Assembly (NCBI GenBank): GCA_937973635.1
Contig: CALJJZ010000044.1
Location: 72 to 64,071, forward strand
DNA: 64,000 nt
Direction: 5' to 3'
DNA from: an uncultured Bacillota bacterium
Lineage (GTDB): Bacteria; Bacillota; Dethiobacteria; DTU022; UBA8154
The notes under the pieces were generated by a model that made no database searches, had not been told where the DNA came from, and saw nothing but the letters and a program-made list of their open reading frames with translations. The translations under genes were made by a program, and so were the position numbers. Of this stretch, positions 3,102 through 31,642 are shown one piece after another; position 1 is the stretch's first letter; every line of letters begins with the position of its first letter.

Positions 3102-5075
3102 ATGTTTTTACAACTGCACAATATCCATAAAGCCTACGGCGCCAACCCTGTTTTGCGCGGCGTCTCCCTGCAGCTGCACCGCGGCGAGCGGGCGGGCCTG
3201 ATCGGAGTCAACGGCTCCGGCAAGAGCACGATCCTGAAAATCATCATGGGCGAAGAAACTGCCGATGGGGGGCAGCTCCGCCTCTCCCGGGAGGTTAAGG
3301 TGGGTTACTTGAGCCAGAAACCGGAGTTTACTAGCAAGGAGACGCTGCGCGCTTTTTTGGAGCAGGGGGCGGCGCCGTTACTTAAGCTACAAAAAGAGAT
3401 GGCCGCCCTGGAGCAGGAGATGGCCCGGGTGTCCCGGCAGGAGGGGAAGAATGCACCCCGGCTGGACCCCCTGGTAGAACGTTACGGGATACTGGCACAC
3501 CATTTTGAAGAGCAGGGAGGCTATGACCTGGAGCACCGCCTGCGGGTTGTGGCCAGGGGGCTGGGCTTTGACGAGGCGGACCTCGGCCGTTCCCTCGCCA
3601 CTTTCAGCGGCGGCGAGAAAACGCGGGCCCAGCTCGCAGCGCTGCTCTTGCAGGAACCGGAGCTGCTGCTCCTCGATGAGCCCACCAACAACCTGGATAC
3701 AGAGGCGGTGGAATGGCTGGAGAGCTACCTTTCCGCCTGGCGCGGCGCTCTTTTGGTGGTTTCCCACGACCGTTATTTTCTTGACCGGGTGGCCACTGAA
3801 GTGCTTCTGCTGGAGCAGGGCGTGGTCCGGGCCTACCGGGGGAATTACAGCGCCTTTCAGTCCCAGCGGCGCCTGGAGGAGGCAACTGCCCTGAAGGCAT
3901 ACCGCAAACAGCAGGCAGTCCTGGAAAAAGAGAGGGCTTTTATCCTTAACGCCGCTGCTGATGCCCGCACAAAGCGACAGGCCCGCAGCCGGGAAAAGCG
4001 TCTGGAAAAGCTGGAGCCGCTTCAGGGGGTTACCCGTGAGCGGGAAATTAAGATCAGGTTGGGTTTTGCCGGGCGCAGCGGCAAACTGGTGGTGAGCCTG
4101 GAAAATATCTCCAAAAAATACGGCCCCAGGCAGATTTTTGCCGACGTAAACCTGGAGATTCACTGGGGGGACCGGGTGGCGGTAGTGGGCCCCAACGGTG
4201 CGGGGAAAACCACCCTGCTGCGGGTGATTACAGGGGAAGAAGCCCCTACCACGGGGCGTTTGCGCGTGGGGCCTTCTGTGCGTATGGCCTACTTTGAGCA
4301 GGAACAAAAGGAGCTGGATCCCCACAGCACCCCCCTGGCTGTGATTATGAACGCTTCCTCCATGTCTGCGCCGGAAGCCAGAAATTACCTGGGGAGCTAC
4401 CTTTTTCAGGGGGAAGATGTATTTAAGAAAATCGGGAGCCTGAGCGGTGGCGAACTCAGCCGCCTTGCCCTGGCCAAAATGGGCCTGGTGGAGGGCAATT
4501 TTTTAATCATGGACGAACCTACAAACCACCTCGATTTCCAGGGCGTGGAAGAGCTGGAGACAACGCTGGCCGCTTATCCGGGGACCATACTCCTTGTCTC
4601 CCATGACCGCTATTTTATTTCCCGGACAGCGAACAAGATCCTAGAGCTGCAGGACGGCCGGGCGCGCCTCTTTGGCGGGAGCTACCGGGAGTACCGGGAG
4701 CTCAAAGAGAGGGGAAAGGCCCTCCGCCCCGCTGTTTCCCCTCTGTCGTCGTCCGGTGTGGAGGCGGACCGGGAAAAAGCTGACCGCCTGGCGCAGCGCC
4801 AGGCAGAGCAGGCAAAGCGGGCAGAGCTTATGGCGCAGCGTCGCCGCCGCCGGGAAGCGGAGCGGCAGCTGGCTGCCCTGGAAGAAGAAATCCACGGAAC
4901 GGAAGAGCGTATCGGGCTGCTGGAGCAACAGCTGGCAGATCCGGCCCTTTACAGCTGCTTTGCCCAAGCCCGTCCTGTCATGGACGAATTGCAGGCGCTG
5001 CGCGGGCAGCTGGAGAAGCTCTACAAGCAGTGGGAGGAGACGGCAGCCCTCTTGGAAGAGCTGCCGTCTCTTTAA
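3102..5075 (+). CDS. ABC-F family ATPase (Uup/EttA-like). Two ABC cassettes, no TMD, C-terminal coiled coil.
   Basis: Two Walker A motifs (GVNGSGKST, GPNGAGKTT), two LSGGE signatures, an inter-domain linker, and a Glu/Arg-rich C-terminal coiled coil. Confidence 0.9.
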   Translation: MFLQLHNIHKAYGANPVLRGVSLQLHRGERAGLIGVNGSGKSTILKIIMGEETADGGQLRLSREVKVGYLSQKPEFTSKETLRAFLEQGAAPLLKLQKEMAALEQEMARVSRQEGKNAPRLDPLVERYGILAHHFEEQGGYDLEHRLRVVARGLGFDEADLGRSLATFSGGEKTRAQLAALLLQEPELLLLDEPTNNLDTEAVEWLESYLSAWRGALLVVSHDRYFLDRVATEVLLLEQGVVRAYRGNYSAFQSQRRLEEATALKAYRKQQAVLEKERAFILNAAADARTKRQARSREKRLEKLEPLQGVTREREIKIRLGFAGRSGKLVVSLENISKKYGPRQIFADVNLEIHWGDRVAVVGPNGAGKTTLLRVITGEEAPTTGRLRVGPSVRMAYFEQEQKELDPHSTPLAVIMNASSMSAPEARNYLGSYLFQGEDVFKKIGSLSGGELSRLALAKMGLVEGNFLIMDEPTNHLDFQGVEELETTLAAYPGTILLVSHDRYFISRTANKILELQDGRARLFGGSYREYRELKERGKALRPAVSPLSSSGVEADREKADRLAQRQAEQAKRAELMAQRRRRREAERQLAALEEEIHGTEERIGLLEQQLADPALYSCFAQARPVMDELQALRGQLEKLYKQWEETAALLEELPSL

Positions 5076-5100: not shown

Positions 5101-5787
5101 CTAACGCACGAAAAGGTGGCTGCCGATACGGGCCAGCACCGGCCGGCTGCGTATCCAGGCGTTCCAGGATTTGGCAGGATTGTAAAAGGAGAGTGCTCCT
5201 CCTGTGGGGTCATTGCCCTCAAGGGCTTCCAGAACAGCCCGGCGAGCTTCGTCCCCGGCCGGCCTGTTAATTGTCCCGTTGCGTACGGGACAGTACTGAT
5301 AGCCATAGGACACTTGGTAGATGACTCCGGGGATCGTATTGGGGTAACGGGGGCTCTCCACCCTGTTTAAAACCGTGGCGGCCACAGCCACTTTGCCCGG
5401 GTACGGCTCGCCCCCGGCTTCCGCCTGGACGAGGCGGGCCAGCAGATCGATGTCCTTCGCGCTGAAGCGCGGTGCCGGTGGCGCTGGCGGCGATGTCGGC
5501 ACGGCTGCCTCGGTACCTGCGCCTTCTTCTTTATTTGTCTTCCCTTTTCTTCCTTCTTTTTCTTCTTCTTTTAGTTCTCCTGCTGTTTTTTCCACGGGTA
5601 ACAGCTGGTTTGCAGCAGCTGGTTTTAACAGGGGATCGAGGGCGCTTGCGCTCAACATTACCGCCGCGGCTTCCTTTTTGCCCGGCCCGGAGGCTTCTGC
5701 CACCCGGGCGGAGGTTTCCGCCGATCCGCCTGTGATCAGGAAAATACAGATAGCCATACTTAACAATTTTTGCATCTTTTGTTTCAT
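5101..5787 (-). CDS. SleB-like cell-wall (spore cortex-lytic) hydrolase with signal peptide
   Basis: C-terminal Hydrolase_2 domain (VAATVLNRVESPRYPNTIPGVIYQ...YQYCPVRNG...FYNP). N-terminal signal peptide. RBS GGAGGTGAGGAGG sits before the ATG. Confidence 0.8.
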   Translation of the reverse strand: MKQKMQKLLSMAICIFLITGGSAETSARVAEASGPGKKEAAAVMLSASALDPLLKPAAANQLLPVEKTAGELKEEEKEGRKGKTNKEEGAGTEAAVPTSPPAPPAPRFSAKDIDLLARLVQAEAGGEPYPGKVAVAATVLNRVESPRYPNTIPGVIYQVSYGYQYCPVRNGTINRPAGDEARRAVLEALEGNDPTGGALSFYNPAKSWNAWIRSRPVLARIGSHLFVR

Positions 5788-5794
5788 TTTTCCT

Positions 5795-5920
5795 CCTCAC
5801 CTCCGGAGTTAGCTGTCGGGTTAGGGCGAGGAATGCCCTACCGCCTGTAGGCGGTTACACCCCGGAACATGGTTCCCCCGTACCCTCAAAAAGAGGGATT
5901 CGGCATTGATCGGTTTTCCG
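5795..5920 (-). ncRNA. Cyclic-di-AMP riboswitch (ydaO-yuaA class) in the 5' leader of the SleB-like gene
   Basis: The minus-strand transcript carries the ydaO hallmark segments as I recall them: UGCCGAAUCCC, ACGGGGGAACC, GGGGUGUAACC, and the 3' block AACCCGACAGCUAACUCCGGAGG. That last block runs into the RBS. A TATAAT lies about 10 nt upstream. Cell-wall hydrolases are classic ydaO targets. Confidence 0.5.
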
Positions 5921-19154: not shown

Positions 19155-19230
19155 TGGTGGACCCGAGGGGGCTCGAACCCCTGGCCTCCAGAGTGCGATT
19201 CTGGCGCTCTCCCAGCTGAGCTACGGGCCC
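19155..19230 (-). tRNA. tRNA-Ala (anticodon CGC)
   Basis: Reverse complement folds as a cloverleaf: GGGCCCGTAGCTCAGCTGGGAGAGCGCCAGAATCGCACTCTGGAGGCCAGGGGTTCGAGCCCCTCGGGTCCACCA. It has the G3:U70 Ala identity pair, GGTTCGA T-loop and an encoded CCA. Confidence 0.85.
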
Positions 19231-23079: not shown

Positions 23080-23216
23080 TAGCCAAGCCTGCCTTTTAAA
23101 ATTCATAATCATTTTAACATATTCCAGAGGCGTTGTTAATGGAATAACTTTTCTTTCCCTTGACAAGCCTTTCTTTTTTAATTTAAAATCGTGGTAGGCG
23201 CGAATATGAACTATAT

Positions 23217-23229
23217 TTCACATTGTGAA
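23217..23229. promoter_or_regulatory. Perfect palindrome TTCACATTGTGAA upstream of IclR gene 1 (candidate IclR operator)
   Basis: A 13-nt perfect inverted repeat. Related copies lie at 24247 and 25721. Confidence 0.5.
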
Positions 23230-23285
23230 GGCTGTTTTTTTATACCAGTACGGAGTGGGAAAGGCGTCTGCTCCAAAAGGAGAGT

Positions 23286-24161
23286 ATGGGTATGGAGAAA
23301 GGGGAAAAAGAACAGAAACTGAGGGGAGCTGGCGGTATTAAGCTGGAAGCAAAGCATGATTTTGATGCCAATGGAGAGGGCGAGGAGAGGGACGGCCGCT
23401 ACGTCCAATCTGTGGAAAGGGTCCTCAATATTCTTGAAGCCATGGCCAGCGTAGGCGGCCCTATTACTGTAACTGAACTGGCAGACCGGGTTAAACTCAA
23501 GATCAGTACCGTGCACCGCCTCCTCTCAACTTTATTGCACCGCGGGTACGTAGAACAGGAGGACGACAATAAATACAGATTGGGCCTGAAACTCATGGAG
23601 ATAGGCAATGCTGTCCTCTATTATTCCGATATCCGCACCGTGGCGAGGCCATATCTGGAAGAGCTTATGGAGCGCTGCAATGAAACAGTTAACCTGGCCA
23701 TCCTGGATGATGTGGACGTAGTTTATATTGATCAGGTTGAGTCTAAGAACCTGATCATCGTTAAAATGCTGGCTCAGGTGGGAAACCGCGGCCCGGTTCA
23801 CTGCACTTCTTCCGGCAAAGTACTCTTGGCTTTCCTTCCGGAAGACAAAAGGGAAGAGGTAATTTCCAGATTGGATTTGGTTAAATATACCAATGAAACC
23901 ATTACCGACCCGGATAATCTGCGCAAAGAATTAAAGCGGGTACGGGAAGACGGTTATGCCGTGGACTGGGGAGAGCGGGAGGAACACGTCCGTTGTATCG
24001 CTGCGCCCATTCTTAACCACGAGGGGCGTGCCATTGCCAGCGTGAGTATATCCGGCCCCAGCAACCGCATTACCACTTATTATATGAAAAATGAACTGGT
24101 TGACTTAATCCGACAGACGGCACGAAAAATTTCCCACAAAATGGGTTATAACGGCGCTTAG
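23286..24161 (+). CDS. IclR-family transcriptional regulator
   Basis: N-terminal HTH (VQSVERVLNILEAMA...ITVTELADRVKLKISTVHRLLSTL) and C-terminal IclR effector domain (GAV fold motifs). Confidence 0.85.
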   Translation: MGMEKGEKEQKLRGAGGIKLEAKHDFDANGEGEERDGRYVQSVERVLNILEAMASVGGPITVTELADRVKLKISTVHRLLSTLLHRGYVEQEDDNKYRLGLKLMEIGNAVLYYSDIRTVARPYLEELMERCNETVNLAILDDVDVVYIDQVESKNLIIVKMLAQVGNRGPVHCTSSGKVLLAFLPEDKREEVISRLDLVKYTNETITDPDNLRKELKRVREDGYAVDWGEREEHVRCIAAPILNHEGRAIASVSISGPSNRITTYYMKNELVDLIRQTARKISHKMGYNGA

Positions 24162-24246
24162 CCGTTTTTTTTTTTTGCCTTTTTTCATTTGCCGGAACCT
24201 TTGCCCTTGACAGTATAAATACCCCTGCATATAATTAAACCGTGCC

Positions 24247-24261
24247 TTCCACAATGTGAAA
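24247..24261. promoter_or_regulatory. Palindrome TTCCACAATGTGAAA in the gdh promoter region (candidate IclR operator)
   Basis: Near-perfect inverted repeat about 50 nt upstream of the gdh start. It is followed by a CATTTTCGC motif that also occurs upstream of the second IclR gene. Confidence 0.5.
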
Positions 24262-24309
24262 TCATTTTCGCGATGAGGAAAACAATTTTAAAAATTGGGG
24301 GGTTCCGCA

Positions 24310-25587
24310 ATGGAATTGTCGGGCGTATCGGTGGCGGGAGCTTGCGAGTTGAATCCTTTTGCCATGGCGCAGCAACAGTGTGATGATTGTGCCAATATCC
24401 TTAACATTGACCAGGGTGTGCGGGAAATTATCCGCGAACCAATGCAGGAGATACATGTTTCTATCCCTGTACGTATGGACGACGGTAGCATCAAGGTTTT
24501 TAAAGGGTTCAGGGTTATACATAACAATGCCCTGGGGCCGGCCAAAGGCGGCATCCGTTTTCATCCCGACGAAACGGCGGATACGGTAAGGGCCCTTGCC
24601 ACGTGGATGACCTGGAAGTGCGCCCTGGTGGAGCTGCCCCTGGGCGGCGGCAAAGGGGGCGTTGTCTGTAACCCCAAAGAGATGTCCCAGGGAGAGCTGG
24701 AACGGCTCAGCCGGGGCTATGTGGACCGGGTCTGGCAGGTAATCGGGCCGGATAAAGATATTCCCGCCCCCGATGTATATACAAACCCGCAAATTATGGC
24801 CTGGATGATGGATCAATATTCCAAAATAGCGGGGAAGAACCAGTTTGGTGTGATTACGGGCAAGCCGCTGCGCCTTGGCGGTTCTGCCGGGCGCCATGAC
24901 GCTACGGCCAGAGGCGGGCTCTATGTGCTGCGGGAAGCGGCCCGGGCCCGGGGCCTTAACCTGAAAGGCGCTACCATGGCGATACAGGGCTACGGCAATG
25001 CCGGCTCTTATGTGGCTTCCCTGGCGCAGGAGCTGTTTGGCTGCCGCATCGTGGCTGTAAGCGACAGCAAGGGTGCCGTATATAACAAAATGGGGCTGGA
25101 CCCCCAGCTTTTGAGCGAGCATAAATCCTTTACCGGCTCCGTCGTCGGCTTTCCCAAGTCCGACCCCCTGCAGCAGGCAGAGCTTTTGGAGCTGGACGTT
25201 GACGTGCTCTGCCCCTGTTCCCTGGAAGGCGTGATCAACGCCGGGAATGCAGAGCGCATCAAAGCCTCCATCGTTGCCGAATTTGCCAACGGTCCCACTA
25301 CGCCGGAGGCAGACGAAATCCTCTTTGCCCGCGATATTCACCTGCTCCCCGATTTTCTTTGCAATGCCGGCGGCGTAACCGTTTCTTATTTTGAAATGGT
25401 GCAGAATTTTAACATGTTTTACTGGGAAGAAAAAGAAGTATATGAGCGCCTGGACAGAAAGATGACGGCAGCTTACCACTCCGTGCTGGAGATGTCGAAA
25501 AAGTATGGGGTAAATATGCGGCGGGCTGCCTATATTCTTGCGGTGCGGCGGGTAGCCGAAGCCATGCAATTGCGCGGCTGGGTTTAG
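24310..25587 (+). CDS. gdh: Glutamate dehydrogenase (Glu/Leu/Phe/Val dehydrogenase family)
   Basis: Catalytic Lys motif KGGIRFHP, GGGKGG loop, and NAD(P)-binding Rossmann motif GYGNAGS. The long ORF on the opposite strand is antisense. Confidence 0.9.
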   Translation: MELSGVSVAGACELNPFAMAQQQCDDCANILNIDQGVREIIREPMQEIHVSIPVRMDDGSIKVFKGFRVIHNNALGPAKGGIRFHPDETADTVRALATWMTWKCALVELPLGGGKGGVVCNPKEMSQGELERLSRGYVDRVWQVIGPDKDIPAPDVYTNPQIMAWMMDQYSKIAGKNQFGVITGKPLRLGGSAGRHDATARGGLYVLREAARARGLNLKGATMAIQGYGNAGSYVASLAQELFGCRIVAVSDSKGAVYNKMGLDPQLLSEHKSFTGSVVGFPKSDPLQQAELLELDVDVLCPCSLEGVINAGNAERIKASIVAEFANGPTTPEADEILFARDIHLLPDFLCNAGGVTVSYFEMVQNFNMFYWEEKEVYERLDRKMTAAYHSVLEMSKKYGVNMRRAAYILAVRRVAEAMQLRGWV

Positions 25588-25658
25588 CTGCGGTTACGGC
25601 AACCTGCCGGCGGAAAAGTATAATTTATAATTAAATTAATCAGGAATACCTTTAACCA

Positions 25659-25712
25659 TACCATAAACCGGCTCGAGCCAGATCTCGAAGCCGGTTTATG
25701 GTTTTATTTTTA
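25659..25712 (+). terminator. Rho-independent terminator after gdh (ATACCATAAACCGGC...GCCGGTTTATGGT + T-run)
   Basis: Stem of about 13 bp followed by TTTTATTTTTAT. Confidence 0.7.
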
Positions 25713-25720
25713 TGAATACA

Positions 25721-25737
25721 TTTCCACAATGTGAAAA
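25721..25737. promoter_or_regulatory. Palindrome TTTCCACAATGTGAAAA upstream of IclR gene 2 and the redox operon (candidate IclR operator)
   Basis: Third copy of the TTCACA-N-TGTGAA family. It lies 9 nt upstream of the promoter -35. Confidence 0.5.
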
Positions 25738-25745
25738 CATATCCC

Positions 25746-25775
25746 TTGACATAGCCGCTGTTCCGCCGTTATAAT
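25746..25775 (+). promoter_or_regulatory. Consensus sigma-A promoter TTGACA-18-TATAAT
   Basis: TTGACA at 25746-25751 and TATAAT at 25770-25775, upstream of the IclR-2 / NuoE-F-like operon. Confidence 0.6.
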
Positions 25776-25837
25776 CAGAAAAATAGAAAACATTTTCGCA
25801 TTGCGGAATATATTCTTTTAGGGGAGAGGTGTCAGCC

Positions 25838-26626
25838 ATGACGCAAATGGTGAAAAACCATGTGCGGGAGAAACCGGTACAATCGGTGGAACGGTCGCTG
25901 CGCATCCTTGAACTCATGGCGGAACGGGGGCAGCCTTTAAGCCTCAGCGATATCAGCCACCACCTCAAACTGAAGATAAGTACGGCCCACCGCCTGTTAA
26001 AAACCTTAATCATCTGCGGCTTTGCCCAGCAGGATCCTTATTCCGGAAAATACCTCCTCGGCATCAAGAATTTTACCATCGGTTACAACGCCCTGTACAG
26101 CCTTGATATCCGCAACGTTGCCCGCCCTTTCCTGCATCAGCTCGTAGCCAGGTACCACGAAACGGCGAGCCTCGGTATTCTGGATCAGGGCGATCTGATC
26201 TATATTGACCAGGTTGAATCGGAAAAAATGGTAAAGATGCTCGCCCGCCTGGGCAGCCGCCTGCCGGCCCATTCCCATGCGGTGGGCAAAGTGCTCTTGT
26301 CGGCCCTGAGCGAAACGGAACTGGAGCTGTTCCTGAAAAACAAAAAGCTGGAAAAGTTTACAGAAAACACCATTAACTCGGCAGAGCAATTAAAAAAAGA
26401 GCTGTACACGATCCGCAAGCAGTCCTATGCTCTGGATCTGGAAGAGACGGAGCTGGGAATCCGCTGTGTGGCCGCCCCTGTCTTTAACCACCTGGGCCAT
26501 GCCACGGCTGCAGTGGGCATATCAGCGCCAAGCAGCCGCGTCAGCTCCACATATCTTAACGAGTTGGCCGGCGCAGTAAAGCAAGCAGGTAAGGAAATAT
26601 CCATGCGCCTAGGTTATAAAGGGTAG
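25838..26626 (+). CDS. IclR-family transcriptional regulator (second)
   Basis: HTH (VQSVERSLRILELMAERGQPLSLSDISHHLKLKISTAHRLLKTL) plus IclR effector domain. A paralog of the 23286 gene. Confidence 0.85.
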   Translation: MTQMVKNHVREKPVQSVERSLRILELMAERGQPLSLSDISHHLKLKISTAHRLLKTLIICGFAQQDPYSGKYLLGIKNFTIGYNALYSLDIRNVARPFLHQLVARYHETASLGILDQGDLIYIDQVESEKMVKMLARLGSRLPAHSHAVGKVLLSALSETELELFLKNKKLEKFTENTINSAEQLKKELYTIRKQSYALDLEETELGIRCVAAPVFNHLGHATAAVGISAPSSRVSSTYLNELAGAVKQAGKEISMRLGYKG

Positions 26627-26662: not shown

Positions 26663-27229
26663 TTGGCCAAGGTAGCGGAGGAGTTAAAAAATGGACAGAA
26701 AGAGACGGCCGGCCAGAACAACGTATCCCTGGTGGCTTTATTGCAGGAGGTGCAGGAACGGTACAATTATCTCCCGGAAGACGTCTTAAGGGAGCTGGCC
26801 CGCGAGAAGAACCTTTCTCTTATGGAAATGTACAGTGTGGCTACTTTTTATAAGAGTTTTAGCCTGCAGCCACGGGGCAAACATAAGGTTGCAACCTGTT
26901 CTGGCACGGCCTGCCATGTCCGGGGCAGTGAAAAGGTTACGGAAGAGCTCTCCCGGGTGCTCGGCATCAAGCCCGGAGAAACGTCGCAGGACGGCGCATA
27001 CTCTCTGGAAACCGTCAACTGCCTGGGGGCGTGCGCCCTTGCCCCCCTGGTAGTGGTGGACGGGGAGTACCACGGCAATATGACAGCTGCTAGGGCTGCT
27101 GCTCTGATTAAAGAACATTTAAAGAAAAGCAGGGGTTTGTCTGCAGCAGAACTGGAGCAGGATGTGGAAAAGAAAGCCTGGGAAGGTTGTTCCTGTGCCA
27201 TACTGCTTGCCGGAAATGATAAAAAGTAA
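26663..27229 (+). CDS. NuoE/HydC-like thioredoxin-fold [2Fe-2S] subunit (24-kDa type)
   Basis: The CxxxxC...CxxxC motifs (ATCSGTACHVRG...CLGACALAPLV) and overall similarity to NADH dehydrogenase subunit E. Confidence 0.85.
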   Translation: MAKVAEELKNGQKETAGQNNVSLVALLQEVQERYNYLPEDVLRELAREKNLSLMEMYSVATFYKSFSLQPRGKHKVATCSGTACHVRGSEKVTEELSRVLGIKPGETSQDGAYSLETVNCLGACALAPLVVVDGEYHGNMTAARAAALIKEHLKKSRGLSAAELEQDVEKKAWEGCSCAILLAGNDKK

Positions 27230-27253
27230 CGGATCTGCCGGAGGGAGAAGATT

Positions 27254-29119
27254 ATGGATGCTCTAAAAACCGGCTTGCGGTCGCTGCCGGAACTGTTTGA
27301 CTTGCAGCTGGAGTTAAAAAAGAAAAGGGAACAAAGGGAAAATTACCTCGCTGTCTGCGGCGACACGGGCTGTACTGCCTGGGGTTCGGAGCAGGTTAAA
27401 GATCTTTTTGCCCGGTGCCTGGAAGAAAAGGGGCTCAGTCAAAGTACGGGCCTAAAATTTACCGGCTGCCTGGGATTGTGTGAGTGCGGGCCCGTGGTCA
27501 TCGTCTTTCCCCAGGGTATATTTTACCAGAAGGTAAAAACGGAAGACATTGAAGAGATTGTGGAGCAGACGCTGCTGCAGGGCAAGGTCGTGGAGCGGCT
27601 CCTTTATCAGGACCCGCTGAGTGGGGCAAAAATTGTTCATGCGGAGGAGATACCTTTTTACCGTAAGCAGCAGCGGGTCTTGCTGGCAAACAACTGGAAA
27701 ATAGATCCTTCCAGTATTGAAGATTATCTGGCCCTAGGTGGCTATGGCGCCCTGGGTCGTGTCCTCGGTCAGATGAGCAGTGAACAGGTGATCGGGGAGA
27801 TAAAAGCTTCCCGCCTGCGCGGCAGGGGCGGCGCCGGTTTTCCGGCGGGGCTGAAATGGGAAGAGTGCAGCGGGATGCCGGCAAAGCAGAAGTATATCAT
27901 TTGTAATGCCGACGAGGGCGATCCCGGCGCTTTTATGGACCGCAGCCTCCTGGAGGGGAATCCCCATTCTGTCCTGGAGGGTTTGATCATCGGCGGTTTT
28001 GCCGTGGGCGCCAGCGAAGGCATTATCTATATCCGGGCCGAATACCCCACTGCCGTGCAGAAGGTAAGGTTGGCCATTGCCCAGGCGGAGGAGCTGGGCT
28101 TGCTGGGGGAAAACATCCTTGGCAGCCGCTTCAGTTTTAAGGTAAGTGTAAGCGTGGGAGCCGGGGCTTTCGTTTGCGGGGAGACTTCCGCCCTGGTGGA
28201 GTCGGTACATGGTCGTGTTGGTGAGCCCCGGCAAAAGCCCCCTCATCTGGCAGAGCGGGGTTATAACAACTGTCCCACGGTAATTAACAACGTAGAGACG
28301 CTGGCAAATATTCCTTACATTATAAATATGGGTGCAGAGGCTTACAGCCGGATTGGTTCGGGAAAATCAGGAGGCACGAAGATCTTTTCCCTGGTGGGTA
28401 AGGTCCATCACACGGGGCTGGTGGAGGTGCCCCTGGGTATGCCCCTGCGCAAGATTATTTTTGAGATCGGCGGGGGGATCAAAGGGGGAAAAGCGTTTAA
28501 AGCGGTTCAGACGGGAGGTCCGTCGGGGGGCTGCCTGCCCGCTTCTATGCTCGACCTGCCCACTGATTTCGATGAGCTGAACGCAGCAGGTTCGATGATG
28601 GGTTCGGGCGGGATGATCGTAATGGATGAGGAAACCTGTATGGTTGACCTGGCCCGTTATTTTTTAAAATTCCTGAATGATGAGTCCTGCGGCTGTTGTT
28701 TTACCTGCCGGGAAGGCCTCAGCCGTATGCTGGAGATGGTGGAGGCCATTACCAAGGGGCAAAGCAGCATGGCGGAGTTTGCCCTGCTTAAAGAACTGGC
28801 TGCCGTAGTCAGGGATTCGACCATGTGCGGCCTGGGCCAGACGGGCGCCAACCCGGTGCTTTCCACGATCCGCTACTTCACGGAAGAGTACCGCGCCCAT
28901 ATAGAGGAAAGGAGATGCCCTGCCGGCGTTTGCCGGGACCTGATCAGCTTCCATATTAATAGTGAACTGTGCAACGGTTGCGGCGCCTGCCGCCGCAAGT
29001 GCCCGGCAGGGGCGATTACAGGTGAGGCCAAGATGCCCCACTTCATCCGGGCGGAGCTCTGCACGAAATGCGGTATCTGCCTGGAAAGCTGTCCCATTCA
29101 GGCTGTAATTAAACTGTAA
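27254..29119 (+). CDS. NuoF/HydB-like NADH-binding FMN flavoprotein with an N-terminal [2Fe-2S] domain and C-terminal 2x[4Fe-4S] ferredoxin domain
   Basis: N-terminal thioredoxin-like cysteines, 51-kDa core (GRGGAGFPAGLKWE, SLVGKV, 4Fe-4S CGxCxxC), and C-terminal CNGCGACRRKCP...CTKCGICLESCP. Confidence 0.9.
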   Translation: MDALKTGLRSLPELFDLQLELKKKREQRENYLAVCGDTGCTAWGSEQVKDLFARCLEEKGLSQSTGLKFTGCLGLCECGPVVIVFPQGIFYQKVKTEDIEEIVEQTLLQGKVVERLLYQDPLSGAKIVHAEEIPFYRKQQRVLLANNWKIDPSSIEDYLALGGYGALGRVLGQMSSEQVIGEIKASRLRGRGGAGFPAGLKWEECSGMPAKQKYIICNADEGDPGAFMDRSLLEGNPHSVLEGLIIGGFAVGASEGIIYIRAEYPTAVQKVRLAIAQAEELGLLGENILGSRFSFKVSVSVGAGAFVCGETSALVESVHGRVGEPRQKPPHLAERGYNNCPTVINNVETLANIPYIINMGAEAYSRIGSGKSGGTKIFSLVGKVHHTGLVEVPLGMPLRKIIFEIGGGIKGGKAFKAVQTGGPSGGCLPASMLDLPTDFDELNAAGSMMGSGGMIVMDEETCMVDLARYFLKFLNDESCGCCFTCREGLSRMLEMVEAITKGQSSMAEFALLKELAAVVRDSTMCGLGQTGANPVLSTIRYFTEEYRAHIEERRCPAGVCRDLISFHINSELCNGCGACRRKCPAGAITGEAKMPHFIRAELCTKCGICLESCPIQAVIKL

Positions 29120-29122
29120 GGA

Positions 29123-29806
29123 GTGCTGCCGGTGGTTAATTTTAAATTGAACGGTCTGGAAGTGGCCGTGGAAAAAGGAACAACGCTTTTGGAGGCAGCC
29201 CGTTTTTATGGCATTGAAATCCCCACCCTCTGCTATGACGCGGGCCTGAGCCCTTACGGCGCCTGCCGCCTCTGCCTCGTGGAGGTGGGGGAGCCGGGAA
29301 AATCACGCCTGGTTACCTCCTGCACTTACCCGGCGCGGGAAGGGCTGCAGGTCAGGACACACTCCCAATGGGTGGTAAATACACGTAAGTTAATTATTGA
29401 GCTTTATTTGGCTACCTGTCCTTCTTCGAAAACCATTCAGGACCTGGCCTCTCGTTACCACGTAACCGGTGTCCGTTTTCGTCAAAAACACGAGGACTGT
29501 ATCCTTTGCGGGCTTTGTATCCGCTACTGCAGTGAACAGATGCAGGCCAAGGCCATTGGTTTTATCAACAGGGGGGAGAAGCGGCGTATCAGCACGCCCT
29601 TTGAACGTAAGGCGGAAGAATGCAGGTTTTGCGGAGGGTGCATGTATATCTGTCCGGCCTGCCAGGCCCGTTGCCAGGGGCCCGAGGAAAAGGAAGCCGT
29701 CTGCAACGCGTGTTTGAACCTCTCCCCGCCCTGCCTTGATCGTTTTAACGATGCCATGTGTTATCTGGATCCCTGCGTGGCCTGTGAGCAGGGGCGCAAG
29801 GAATGA
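29123..29806 (+). CDS. NuoG/HydA-N-terminal-like ferredoxin module ([2Fe-2S] plant-type + [4Fe-4S] clusters) without a catalytic domain
   Basis: Two-Fe-2S motif (CYDAGLSPYGACRLCLVEV...SC), His/Cys cluster, and two CxxCxxCxxxCP motifs. Only 227 aa. Confidence 0.7.
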   Translation: MLPVVNFKLNGLEVAVEKGTTLLEAARFYGIEIPTLCYDAGLSPYGACRLCLVEVGEPGKSRLVTSCTYPAREGLQVRTHSQWVVNTRKLIIELYLATCPSSKTIQDLASRYHVTGVRFRQKHEDCILCGLCIRYCSEQMQAKAIGFINRGEKRRISTPFERKAEECRFCGGCMYICPACQARCQGPEEKEAVCNACLNLSPPCLDRFNDAMCYLDPCVACEQGRKE

Positions 29807-29848
29807 CACTTTAAAATATTGAAAAGATTTTAGAAAGGAGTATTGACC

Positions 29849-31432
29849 ATGACTTATTCACGTTTAAACGCCTCTGCGGCTACCCTGACCAAAAACCGCA
29901 CGGAAGGTTCGATCAGCCCTTTCAGCGGTATGTGTGTAACCTGCGTGGACGGTTGTATCGGTATGTGCGAGATTGGCAAGTCAGCCTACCGCGGCCACGA
30001 AACCATCTACCCCCAGCCCTTTGGGTTGATTACCACTGCTTCGGAAAAAGTTTATCCCCTGGATTATTCCCATTTTACAATTCTGGGGACCGCTGTGGGC
30101 GCCCACGGTATCGAAGCGGACAGCGACAAGGCCATCTTTCCGGCGGTAAACCTTGAAACCAGGGTGGGGCAGGGTGCGGGGATCCGTGTCAAATTACCCT
30201 TTGTCATCTCGGGTATGGGTTCCACCGATGTGGCCGGCAACAACTGGGAGGGATTGGCCTCCGGCGCCGCCCTGGCCGGTGTGATCCTGACCATTGGTGA
30301 AAATGTATGCGGTATGGATACGAGTACAGTGATAAAGGACGGACGGGTAGTTAGCACCACCGACCTGGACCGGCGTGTAAAAATTTACCAGCAATGGCAG
30401 CGGGACGGCTATGGGGCCATCGTTGTCCAGGCCAACGTAGAAGATACGCGGCTGGGAGTCCAGGAGTACGCCATCAGCCAGCTTGGCGTGGAAGCCGTGG
30501 AATTGAAATGGGGCCAGGGTGCCAAGGATATTGGCGGCGAGGTAAAGATCCGGGACCTGGAAAAGGCCCAGCTGTTAAAGCAGAGGGGCTATGTGGTCCT
30601 GCCCGATCCTGAAAACCCTGCGGTGATTGCTGCTTTTAAACAGGGCTCTTTTAAGGAATTTGAGCGCCACTCCCGTGTTGGTATGGTGGAGCTGGAATCT
30701 TTCCTTAAGCGCGTGGAAGAACTGCGCCGGGCCGGAGCCAAATATATCTTCCTGAAGACGGGTGCCTACCGCCCGGCAGACCTGGCCAGGGCGATCAAAT
30801 TTGCCTCCCTGGCGCGCCTTGACCTGCTTACTGTGGACGGGGCGGGAGGCGGCACCGGCATGAGCCCCTGGCGCATGATGAACGAATGGGGCATCCCCTC
30901 CGTGGAGCTGCATTCCCTGCTCTACCGTTATGCGGTCAGGCTGGCGGAAAAGGGCGAATATGTGCCCGACCTGGCCCTGGCCGGAGGTTTTACCCTGGAG
31001 GATCAGGTCTATAAAGGACTTGCCCTTGGCGCTCCCTACGTCAAGCTCATCGGTATGGCCCGTTCCCCCCTGGCGGCGGCGATGGTGGGCAAAACAATCG
31101 GGCGTCGTATCGCCGAAAACCAGGTGCCCGTCTATGTGGAGCGCTTTGGCCATACGATCGAAGATATTTTTGTCACTGCCGCCTCCTTGAAAGAAGAACT
31201 GGGCGAAGAAACTTTCCGCCAGGTTTCGCCGGGGGCCCTTGGCGTTTACACCTATTTTGAGCGCCTGGCCCAGGGGTTGAAGCAGCTTATGTGTGGCAGC
31301 CGCAAATTTGCCCTTGCTTATCTTACCCGGGACGATATTGCGGCCCTCACCAGGGAAGCAGCGGAGGTCAGCGGGATTGACTATGTCATGGACGTGGACA
31401 GGGAAGAGGCGGAGAGGATTTTGGACCTCTAA
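29849..31432 (+). CDS. Stand-alone glutamate-synthase large-subunit domain-2-like FMN/Fe-S protein (YerD / archaeal GltB-2 type, Pfam Glu_synthase)
   Basis: N-terminal CxxCxxxCxxxC cluster, then the GltB FMN-domain fold (GxSxG-like GMGSTDV, LVISGHDGGTGAS-like LTVDGAGGGTGMSP). About 527 aa. No amidotransferase or GXGXG domain. Confidence 0.75.
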   Translation: MTYSRLNASAATLTKNRTEGSISPFSGMCVTCVDGCIGMCEIGKSAYRGHETIYPQPFGLITTASEKVYPLDYSHFTILGTAVGAHGIEADSDKAIFPAVNLETRVGQGAGIRVKLPFVISGMGSTDVAGNNWEGLASGAALAGVILTIGENVCGMDTSTVIKDGRVVSTTDLDRRVKIYQQWQRDGYGAIVVQANVEDTRLGVQEYAISQLGVEAVELKWGQGAKDIGGEVKIRDLEKAQLLKQRGYVVLPDPENPAVIAAFKQGSFKEFERHSRVGMVELESFLKRVEELRRAGAKYIFLKTGAYRPADLARAIKFASLARLDLLTVDGAGGGTGMSPWRMMNEWGIPSVELHSLLYRYAVRLAEKGEYVPDLALAGGFTLEDQVYKGLALGAPYVKLIGMARSPLAAAMVGKTIGRRIAENQVPVYVERFGHTIEDIFVTAASLKEELGEETFRQVSPGALGVYTYFERLAQGLKQLMCGSRKFALAYLTRDDIAALTREAAEVSGIDYVMDVDREEAERILDL

Positions 31433-31496: not shown

Positions 31497-31525
31497 TTGA
31501 CAGCAAAAGATTACTTTTGTTATAT
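31497..31525 (+). promoter_or_regulatory. Sigma-A promoter TTGACA-17-TTATAT upstream of the LarA-like gene
   Basis: TTGACA at 31497-31502 and TTATAT at 31520-31525. Confidence 0.5.
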
Positions 31526-31610
31526 TTCTAGTGACCTTATTATGGCCCTTTGCCAGGTCGGATCACCGCCTGCTCAGCAAAAATGAACTTTGTTTATCTT
31601 CCAGTTTATA

Positions 31611-31642
31611 AGCGCTGCCGCAGAGAGGGCAGCGCTTTTTTC
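31611..31642 (+). terminator. Rho-independent terminator (AGCGCTGCC-gcagagag-GGCAGCGCT + TTTTTT)
   Basis: Nine-bp GC stem plus a T6 run between the GltB-like and LarA-like genes. Confidence 0.7.

Follow-up and report, generated by a model that had tools for sequence, protein, structure and literature searches.

Conserved Palindromes at the Promoters of gdh and of a NuoEF/GltB-Like Operon Are Probable Operators of Two Adjacent IclR-Family Regulators in Dethiobacteria

Introduction

IclR, which acts on aceBAK, and AllR of Escherichia coli are autoregulated repressors with small-acid effectors and with palindromes at or near the promoter. Here we analyze a 64,000-nt stretch of DNA (the window) from contig CALJJZ010000044.1 of an uncultured member of the Dethiobacteria (Bacillota). 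It carries two genes for regulators of the same protein family, iclR1 and iclR2, which bracket the glutamate dehydrogenase gene gdh, and palindromes at the promoters of iclR1, of gdh and of iclR2, the last being followed by genes for NuoEF-like, iron–sulfur (FeS) and GltB-like proteins. The palindromes are well supported as operators of the two adjacent regulators and very probably serve this function, most likely in repression; judged from the sequences, the locus would represent a new regulon of a known kind.

The binding sites of the family have been compiled by Suvorova and Gelfand (2021; PMC8222616), who give the consensus GKTYCRYW3-4RYGRAMC for group 1 and WTTYCRYW3RYGRAAW for its subgroup WTT-11-AAW. 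Tandem sites 18–22 bp apart occur in 94 orthologous groups and were taken as tetramer binding, and three-box sites of alternating direction occur in 32 groups (PMC8222616). TtgV from Pseudomonas putida (PDB 2XRO) is a tetrameric repressor with a long operator overlapping the promoter, and three-box operators are also found with PcaU, PobR, and HmgR (PMC8222616). GdhA (COG334) is among the regulated COGs of this survey, and the respective regulog was not identified in the portion of the survey covered here.

A Conserved Palindrome Linked to the iclR Genes

A preliminary description of the window reported three copies of a palindrome TTCACA-N-TGTGAA with a fixed CACA-N-TGTG core. The three palindromes are indeed present at 23217–23229, 24247–24261, and 25721–25737, but neither the fixed core nor the number of copies could be upheld. 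For the comparison we searched for IclR1 in one genome per species and obtained 20 related loci (68–86% identity), which all belong to Dethiobacter, Syntrophomonadaceae, or unclassified Bacillota metagenome-assembled genomes. This Dethiobacter/Syntrophomonadaceae set showed that the conserved unit is a 15-bp palindrome of 6-3-6 architecture, TTYCRC-N3-GYGRAA, in which the central three nucleotides are variable (AAT, ATG, GAT, CAT, ATA). The window contains at least five such boxes, S2b and S4 being added to the three already described:

23206 to 23230, plus strand: S1, operator with three half-sites, ATGAAC-tata-TTTCAC-att-GTGAAG, at about +10 to +34 of the iclR1 promoter
24247 to 24261, plus strand: S2, TTCCACAATGTGAAA, beginning 11 nt after the gdh -10, at about +5 to +19
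24266 to 24280, plus strand: S2b, weaker tandem box, TTTCGCGATGAGGAA, its centre 19 bp from that of S2
25722 to 25736, plus strand: S3, TTCCACAATGTGAAA, ending 9 nt before the -35 of the iclR2 promoter, centre at about -53
25794 to 25808, plus strand: S4, TTTCGCATTGCGGAA, beginning 18 nt after the -10, at about +12 to +26, centre 72 bp from that of S3

The first of the palindromes described before, TTCACATTGTGAA at 23217–23229, is the right-hand pair of S1 (23216–23230), and the third, TTTCCACAATGTGAAAA at 25721–25737, covers S3. In S1 the middle half-site is common to this first palindrome and to a left pair lying about 10 bp to its left. The left pair, ATGAAA-N4/5-TTTCRY, has the half-sites of the box in reversed order and is kept in 10 loci, 12–17 nt after the -10 of the iclR1 promoter. 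S4 matches the degenerate consensus without a mismatch. A second shared motif, CATTTTCGC, had also been noted; it occurs twice (24263, 25791), yet it is not a separate element but the left edge of S2b and S4, which hold one copy each. By itself it is not significant, as 0.84 copies are expected and 22 of 100 shuffled sequences contain two or more.

The box itself is far from chance. Allowing up to one mismatch, TTCACANTGTGAA is matched three times in the 64 kb with 0.06 matches expected, and none of 100 shuffles reached three. We extended the scan to the window together with the 20 related loci (296 kb). All 20 perfect boxes of this set were located within about 30 kb of iclR-linked intergenic DNA and none elsewhere, with 0.5 expected; with up to one mismatch 38 boxes lie inside this DNA and 10 outside, the latter number corresponding to the chance level. 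A box is present 3′ of the iclR1 orthologue in 20/20 related loci, whichever gene comes next. The box is therefore both footprinted phylogenetically beside the regulator (20 loci) and rare elsewhere (20 copies inside as compared to 0 outside).

Two further candidates in the window were rejected. The sole other near-match (4536–4550, one mismatch) is inside an open reading frame of 657 amino acids and at chance level, and a weak box at 24183–24197, with two mismatches and 9 nt before the gdh -35, is not kept in the closest relative (L001) and was taken as chance. A metagenome-wide scan aimed at further regulon members with the pattern TATAAT-N11-TTCCAC-N3-GTGAAA gave 39 matches, of which only L032 and L036 are iclR1-gdh loci. 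No new regulon targets were found among the 39, the remainder resembling chance matches or unrelated repeats. One match (L043) has a good promoter but stems from an unrelated high-GC organism and was discarded. On five metagenome contigs (L025, L028, L048, L050, L054) the match is the edge of tandem ATTCCACG(A/T)CGTGGAAT-like palindrome repeats; these look like unrelated arrays, possibly CRISPR-like, and not like IclR sites.

The words TTCAC and GTGAA are also found in the sites of Rex (TTGTGAA-N4-TTCACAA) and of CRP, and Rex commonly controls NuoEF-like and hydrogenase operons in Firmicutes. With half-sites made of the same words and a redox-related target operon, the boxes could be assigned to another regulator of the Rex or CRP/FNR type, the iclR genes being mere neighbours. 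We regard this as very unlikely. In the present boxes the half-sites face the opposite way, TTCAC-N5-GTGAA, with a spacing different from that of the Rex operator, and the inverted pair upstream of iclR1 is spaced 2 bp longer than in Rex. A search for Rex boxes with up to three mismatches found none at the three promoters; the only match in the window lies inside the gdh coding sequence, at chance level. Furthermore, the box tracks the iclR gene through changing target genes and fits the consensus of the IclR family (PMC8222616).

This fit extends to details. S2 and S3, both tTTCCACaatGTGAAAa, and S4, tTTTCGCattGCGGAAt, conform to WTTYCRYW3RYGRAAW, and both the tandem (S2/S2b, 19 bp) and the three-box arrangement (S1) of group 1 operators are present. 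Half-site TTYCRY, 3-nt centre, and A/T flanks are the same as in subgroup WTT-11-AAW; the tandem distance of 19 bp falls within the published 18–22 bp; the three boxes alternate in both; and the location mostly 20–80 nt upstream of the start codon and the helix residues S, T, H, and R are likewise common to both (PMC8222616). The centre, in contrast, is here not always composed of A/T (ATG, GAT, CAT). The three-box operators of PcaU, PobR, and HmgR also share the third half-site, found here in S1 and after S2, and the two overlapping pairings of half-sites (PMC8222616). Those proteins are, however, mostly activators of aromatic catabolism in Proteobacteria, whereas here the promoters are of consensus strength and the boxes in repressor positions.

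Two Fixed Layouts of Boxes and Promoters

The boxes accompany three promoters:

23160 to 23189, plus strand: iclR1 promoter, TTGACA-18-TAAAAT, 11 of 12 sigma-70 consensus positions
24207 to 24235, plus strand: gdh promoter, TTGACA-17-TATAAT, 12 of 12 sigma-70 consensus positions
25746 to 25775, plus strand: iclR2-operon promoter, TTGACA-18-TATAAT, 12 of 12 sigma-70 consensus positions

In the window and its relatives the boxes are found at fixed positions in two layouts. Layout 1 consists of a consensus promoter followed by a box; the box is placed there in all 18 cases and starts exactly 11 nt after the -10 in 13 of them, and in 12 of the 18 there is a third half-site, TTTC, 4 nt further downstream. 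Layout 1 is found in front of gdh and, where iclR2 has a separate transcript, also of nuoE. This half-site is part of a full second box in the window and in L001, the centres of the two boxes being 19 bp apart; the L001 counterpart of S2b, TTTCACAATGAGAAA, shows the same GAG deviation at the same spacing. Layout 2 precedes the unit holding iclR2. Here an upstream box ends exactly 9 nt before the -35 (8/8), with its centre near -52 or -53, and a downstream box, TTTCRY-aat-RCGGAA, lies 18–30 nt after the -10 (8/8). Measured from centre to centre, the two boxes lie 72, 72, 74, 80, 80, 83, and 83 bp apart. The upstream box is followed 4 nt later by a weak third half-site, which reaches into the -35.

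The iclR1-type promoter, TTGACAAGCC...TA(A/C)AAT, is kept in about half of the related loci. All three promoters of the window open with the same 9-mer, CCCTTGACA (23157, 24204, 25743), and many related loci have CTTGACA at this place; the shared sequence may reflect a preference for an extended -35 or belong to a third half-site.

As S2, S2b, and S4 are within the predicted transcripts, and a simple scan called S4 terminator-like, the palindromes might be read as RNA hairpins in 5′ leaders, acting as attenuators or stability elements, or else, considering that CCCTTGACA is common to all three promoters, as inert remnants of a duplicated promoter cassette. This is the least probable of the explanations considered and appears extremely unlikely to us. 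S3 and its counterparts are upstream of the promoter and hence outside its transcript. The stem would have only 6 bp with a loop of 3 nt, the leaders fold weakly, and the conserved asymmetry TTCCAC...GTGAAA leaves a C-A mismatch in the stem in most loci. Half-sites and offsets are fixed even to Moorella while the flanks and the central 3 nt diverge, which argues for selection on a protein site.

The Two Regulators

The genes of the two regulators are:

23286 to 24161, plus strand: iclR1, IclR-family regulator of 291 amino acids, helix LKISTVHRLL; PF09339 E 2.8e-16, PF01614 E 4.6e-56
25829 to 26626, plus strand: iclR2, paralogous IclR-family regulator of 265 amino acids, helix LKISTAHRLL; PF09339 E 1.1e-16, PF01614 E 1.5e-54

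Both proteins have an N-terminal HTH_IclR domain followed by IclR_C and are thus members of the family; with 47% identity between them, the Pfam domains bear out the earlier statement that two paralogous IclR regulators bracket gdh. The closest solved structure to IclR1 is TM0065 (1mkm, E 4e-46). None of the equivalog cutoffs of NCBIfam (IclR, AllR, KdgR, PcaR/PcaU/PobR, BhcR) was reached by IclR1 or IclR2. The best match was BhcR with 224 and 232 bits (cutoff 350). Compared to E. coli IclR and AllR the scores are 173 and 152 bits with cutoffs of 380 and 406 bits, and the operator sequence and the regulon differ as well. The targets gdh, GltB-like, and NuoEF-like also depart from the aromatic and sugar-acid targets typical of the family.

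In every orthologue the recognition helix is LKISTVHRLL for IclR1 and LKIST(A/T)HRLL for IclR2. At the positions which have been tied to specificity (PMC8222616) these helices are identical, and the two paralogues are therefore expected to recognize one and the same half-site, in agreement with the lack of a one-to-one mapping between layouts and regulators across the loci. The assignment of one regulator to each layout was accordingly rejected: from locus to locus the layouts change places with respect to iclR1 and iclR2, and the two proteins have the same recognition helix. No KISTVHRLL helix group was found in the portion of the supplementary tables of PMC8222616 that was searched. The orthologous group, which extends over Dethiobacteria, Moorella, and Desulfoscipio, is undescribed and has a textbook family motif.

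Proposed Mode of Regulation

Since the three promoters are near-perfect sigma-70 promoters, no activator should be needed. Boxes are placed on the start-site region, or they flank or abut the -35, and repression by blocking RNA polymerase is therefore the most likely mode. From the observed boxes, their statistics, positions, and conservation we infer the following model for binding, repression, specificity, and effector. A single 15-bp box would accommodate one IclR dimer, and a tetramer would be bound where boxes stand in tandem at 19 bp or a third half-site is added. For S2 and S2b this amounts to a dimer of dimers on adjacent inverted repeats over promoter elements, as with TtgV; the TtgV operator, however, has 42 bp and another sequence, and TtgV controls an efflux pump. 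A small-molecule effector at the C-terminal domain would lift the repression. IclR1 and IclR2 probably read the same boxes, given their near-identical recognition helices, and as their ligand domains differ, two signals would converge on one small regulon comprising gdh, the iclR2-nuoEF-FeS-gltB-like operon, and probably iclR1 itself. The best guess for the effector, from the targets and from the gene context in Desulfoscipio, is a metabolite of the glutamate/2-oxoglutarate node. The earlier proposal of IclR operators and of a small regulon that joins gdh with the NuoEF/GltB-like operon is in this way supported by the conservation of the box, the fixed promoter positions, and the agreement with the group 1 consensus (PMC8222616).

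Several points weigh against this repressor model or limit its reach. The position of the upstream box in layout 2, exactly 9 nt before the -35 in 8/8, has a precision typical of activator sites, and the family does have activators, namely PobR and PcaU (PMC8222616). The same IclR proteins could thus activate from the box at about -53 by a class I-like contact to RNA polymerase, possibly effector-dependent as with PobR/PcaU, and the iclR2 operon would be switched on by them instead of being freed from repression. We consider this unlikely: promoters which already have 12/12 consensus positions do not need activation, and both the weak third half-site overlapping the -35 and the second box, which is always downstream of the start site, fit occlusion. 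Concerning repression, the spacing of the boxes in layout 2 varies and is not always in helical phase, which weakens a looping model, and we do not rely on a DNA loop. Nor do layouts and regulators correspond one-to-one across the loci. Boxes had been claimed upstream of all three units. For gdh and for the unit with iclR2 this is well supported; the iclR1 site is real as well but conserved in its left half only, the right half GTGAAG being AAGAAA in L001. Because this half varies, autoregulation of iclR1 is plausible but less secure than the control of gdh and of the iclR2 operon. Finally, the box scan spans about 296 kb and a few further loci, and more sites may lie elsewhere in the genomes.

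Putative Target Genes and Related Loci

The repressor model concerns the following targets, which are delimited by two terminators:

24295 to 25587, plus strand: gdh, Glu/Leu/Phe/Val dehydrogenase of the glutamate dehydrogenase family, PF00208 and PF02812, best match GDH
26663 to 31432, plus strand: nuoEF/FeS/GltB-like genes for a NuoE-like, a NuoF-like, a 2Fe-2S/4Fe-4S, and a GltB-like flavin mononucleotide (FMN) protein
24150 to 24176, plus strand: intrinsic terminator 3′ of iclR1, hairpin and 12-T run
25660 to 25711, plus strand: strong intrinsic terminator 3′ of gdh, hairpin of -29 kcal/mol and T-run

The true start of gdh is likely the ATG at 24311; its product scores 599 bits against GdhA_Arch, under the equivalog cutoff of NCBIfam. 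With gaps of 3 to 36 nt, the four genes 26663–31432 are predicted to be co-transcribed with iclR2. The terminators after iclR1 and gdh therefore divide the region into three separate units: iclR1, gdh, and iclR2 together with the redox operon.

Gene order varies between the related loci. Behind the iclR1 orthologue, 13 loci have gdh and 2 have nuoE directly; in 4 loci a stand-alone GltB-like paralogue comes first, with iclR2 and the nuoEF operon after it. Further boxes in these loci are found before the iclR2-bearing unit or before nuoE, and the four-gene set NuoE/NuoF/FeS/GltB-like stands behind a box in L001, L007, L009, L010, L011, L015, and L020. A protein search retrieved the exact IclR1 sequence from public assemblies as well as homologues with 56–60% identity from cultured organisms. 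In Dethiobacter alkaliphilus, Moorella sp. E308F, and Desulfoscipio sp. XC116 an iclR homologue (56–57% identical) is followed by a GltB-like gene, and in Moorella and Desulfoscipio a second iclR comes next. All three have layout 2 (in Moorella at locus L061); here the upstream box stands 10 nt from the -35, and the downstream position is taken by a box or by a three-box site. The Desulfoscipio locus also has a divergent gdh, glnA, and an ANTAR regulator alongside. From these arrangements the core of the regulon appears to be iclR plus the GltB-like gene, with gdh and the NuoEF module joined in the Dethiobacter lineage.

The stand-alone GltB-like paralogue lies directly 3′ of the iclR1 homologue in L007 (9060–10634), L009 (5067–6641), L015 (8018–9598), and L020 (2108–3688), where it is about 63% identical to the operon copy, and in the same placement in L060 (7127–8767), L061 (7030–8670), and L062 (7317–8897). 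The two-box promoter in front of it is the same in Dethiobacter, Moorella, and Desulfoscipio. The gdh, glnA, and ANTAR neighbours in Desulfoscipio suggest a nitrogen or glutamate role for it.

In three loci regulatory elements are found without a gene. L005 (1700–1760) and L006 (2150–2215) have an extra promoter, box, and ribosome-binding site with no gene behind, and in L018 (9018–9300) nothing but a terminator follows two boxes with promoters. The three cases resemble decayed copies of regulated units and suggest recent gene loss and shuffling in the regulon.

Neighbouring Features of the Window

Upstream of the iclR1-gdh-iclR2 region there is a divergent ECF sigma-factor gene, and downstream of the operon larA-like/TRAP-transporter genes follow with their own promoter, in whose region no IclR-type box was found. 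The spacer between the GltB-like gene and these genes (31497–31642) contains a promoter-like TTGACA at 31497 and a hairpin, AGCGCTGCC-N8-GGCAGCGCT, at 31611–31636. Both are kept in L001, the T-run 3′ of the hairpin being present in the window only, and the hairpin matched no Rfam family. Possibly these elements form a leader of the larA-like operon. An Rfam scan of the whole window returned a c-di-AMP riboswitch at 5783–5915 (minus strand, 84 bits) and a tRNA gene at 19158–19230 (minus strand); it found no RNA families in the iclR/gdh region.

The Operon Enzyme and Implications

The NuoF-like protein of the operon has an N-terminal 2Fe-2S domain and two C-terminal 4Fe-4S domains, a set of the HydB/BfuB type. 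The short FeS protein (227 amino acids) matches only the FeS N-terminus of HydA/NuoG. For the GltB-like FMN protein (529 amino acids) a partial match to the FMN domain of glutamate synthase was obtained, and it had no matches in NCBIfam and no sequence matches in the PDB. A survey of the Bfu family of bifurcating enzymes does not mention a glutamate-synthase-like partner (PMC9304861). Judging by its domain content, the operon 26663–31432 may encode an undescribed Bfu-type enzyme.

A more far-reaching version of the repressor model, which we put forward only tentatively and consider doubtful, is that the two IclR repressors act as a two-input switch, with identical boxes for both but a different metabolite sensed by each, and that the operon encodes an undescribed Bfu-type flavin/iron–sulfur enzyme working on the glutamate/2-oxoglutarate couple, for example in an NADH- and ferredoxin-linked reductive amination. 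If true, the IclR boxes would provide the first functional handle that connects the GltB-like proteins, a widespread orphan family, with the glutamate metabolism of anaerobic Bacillota.

As regulation the system is unsurprising, since motif, tandem and three-box layouts, and repressor positions follow the published rules of the IclR family. Our analysis provides an operator model, ready for experiment, for two uncharacterized IclR regulators found in Dethiobacteria and in related anaerobes, organisms known mostly from metagenome-assembled genomes, many of them from serpentinizing, alkaline sites. Three gene sets which are unconnected by annotation alone are tied together by the model: gdh, a family of stand-alone GltB-like flavoproteins, and an electron-input module of the NuoEF type. 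This linkage offers a clue to the function of the orphan complex and to the control of glutamate and nitrogen redox metabolism.

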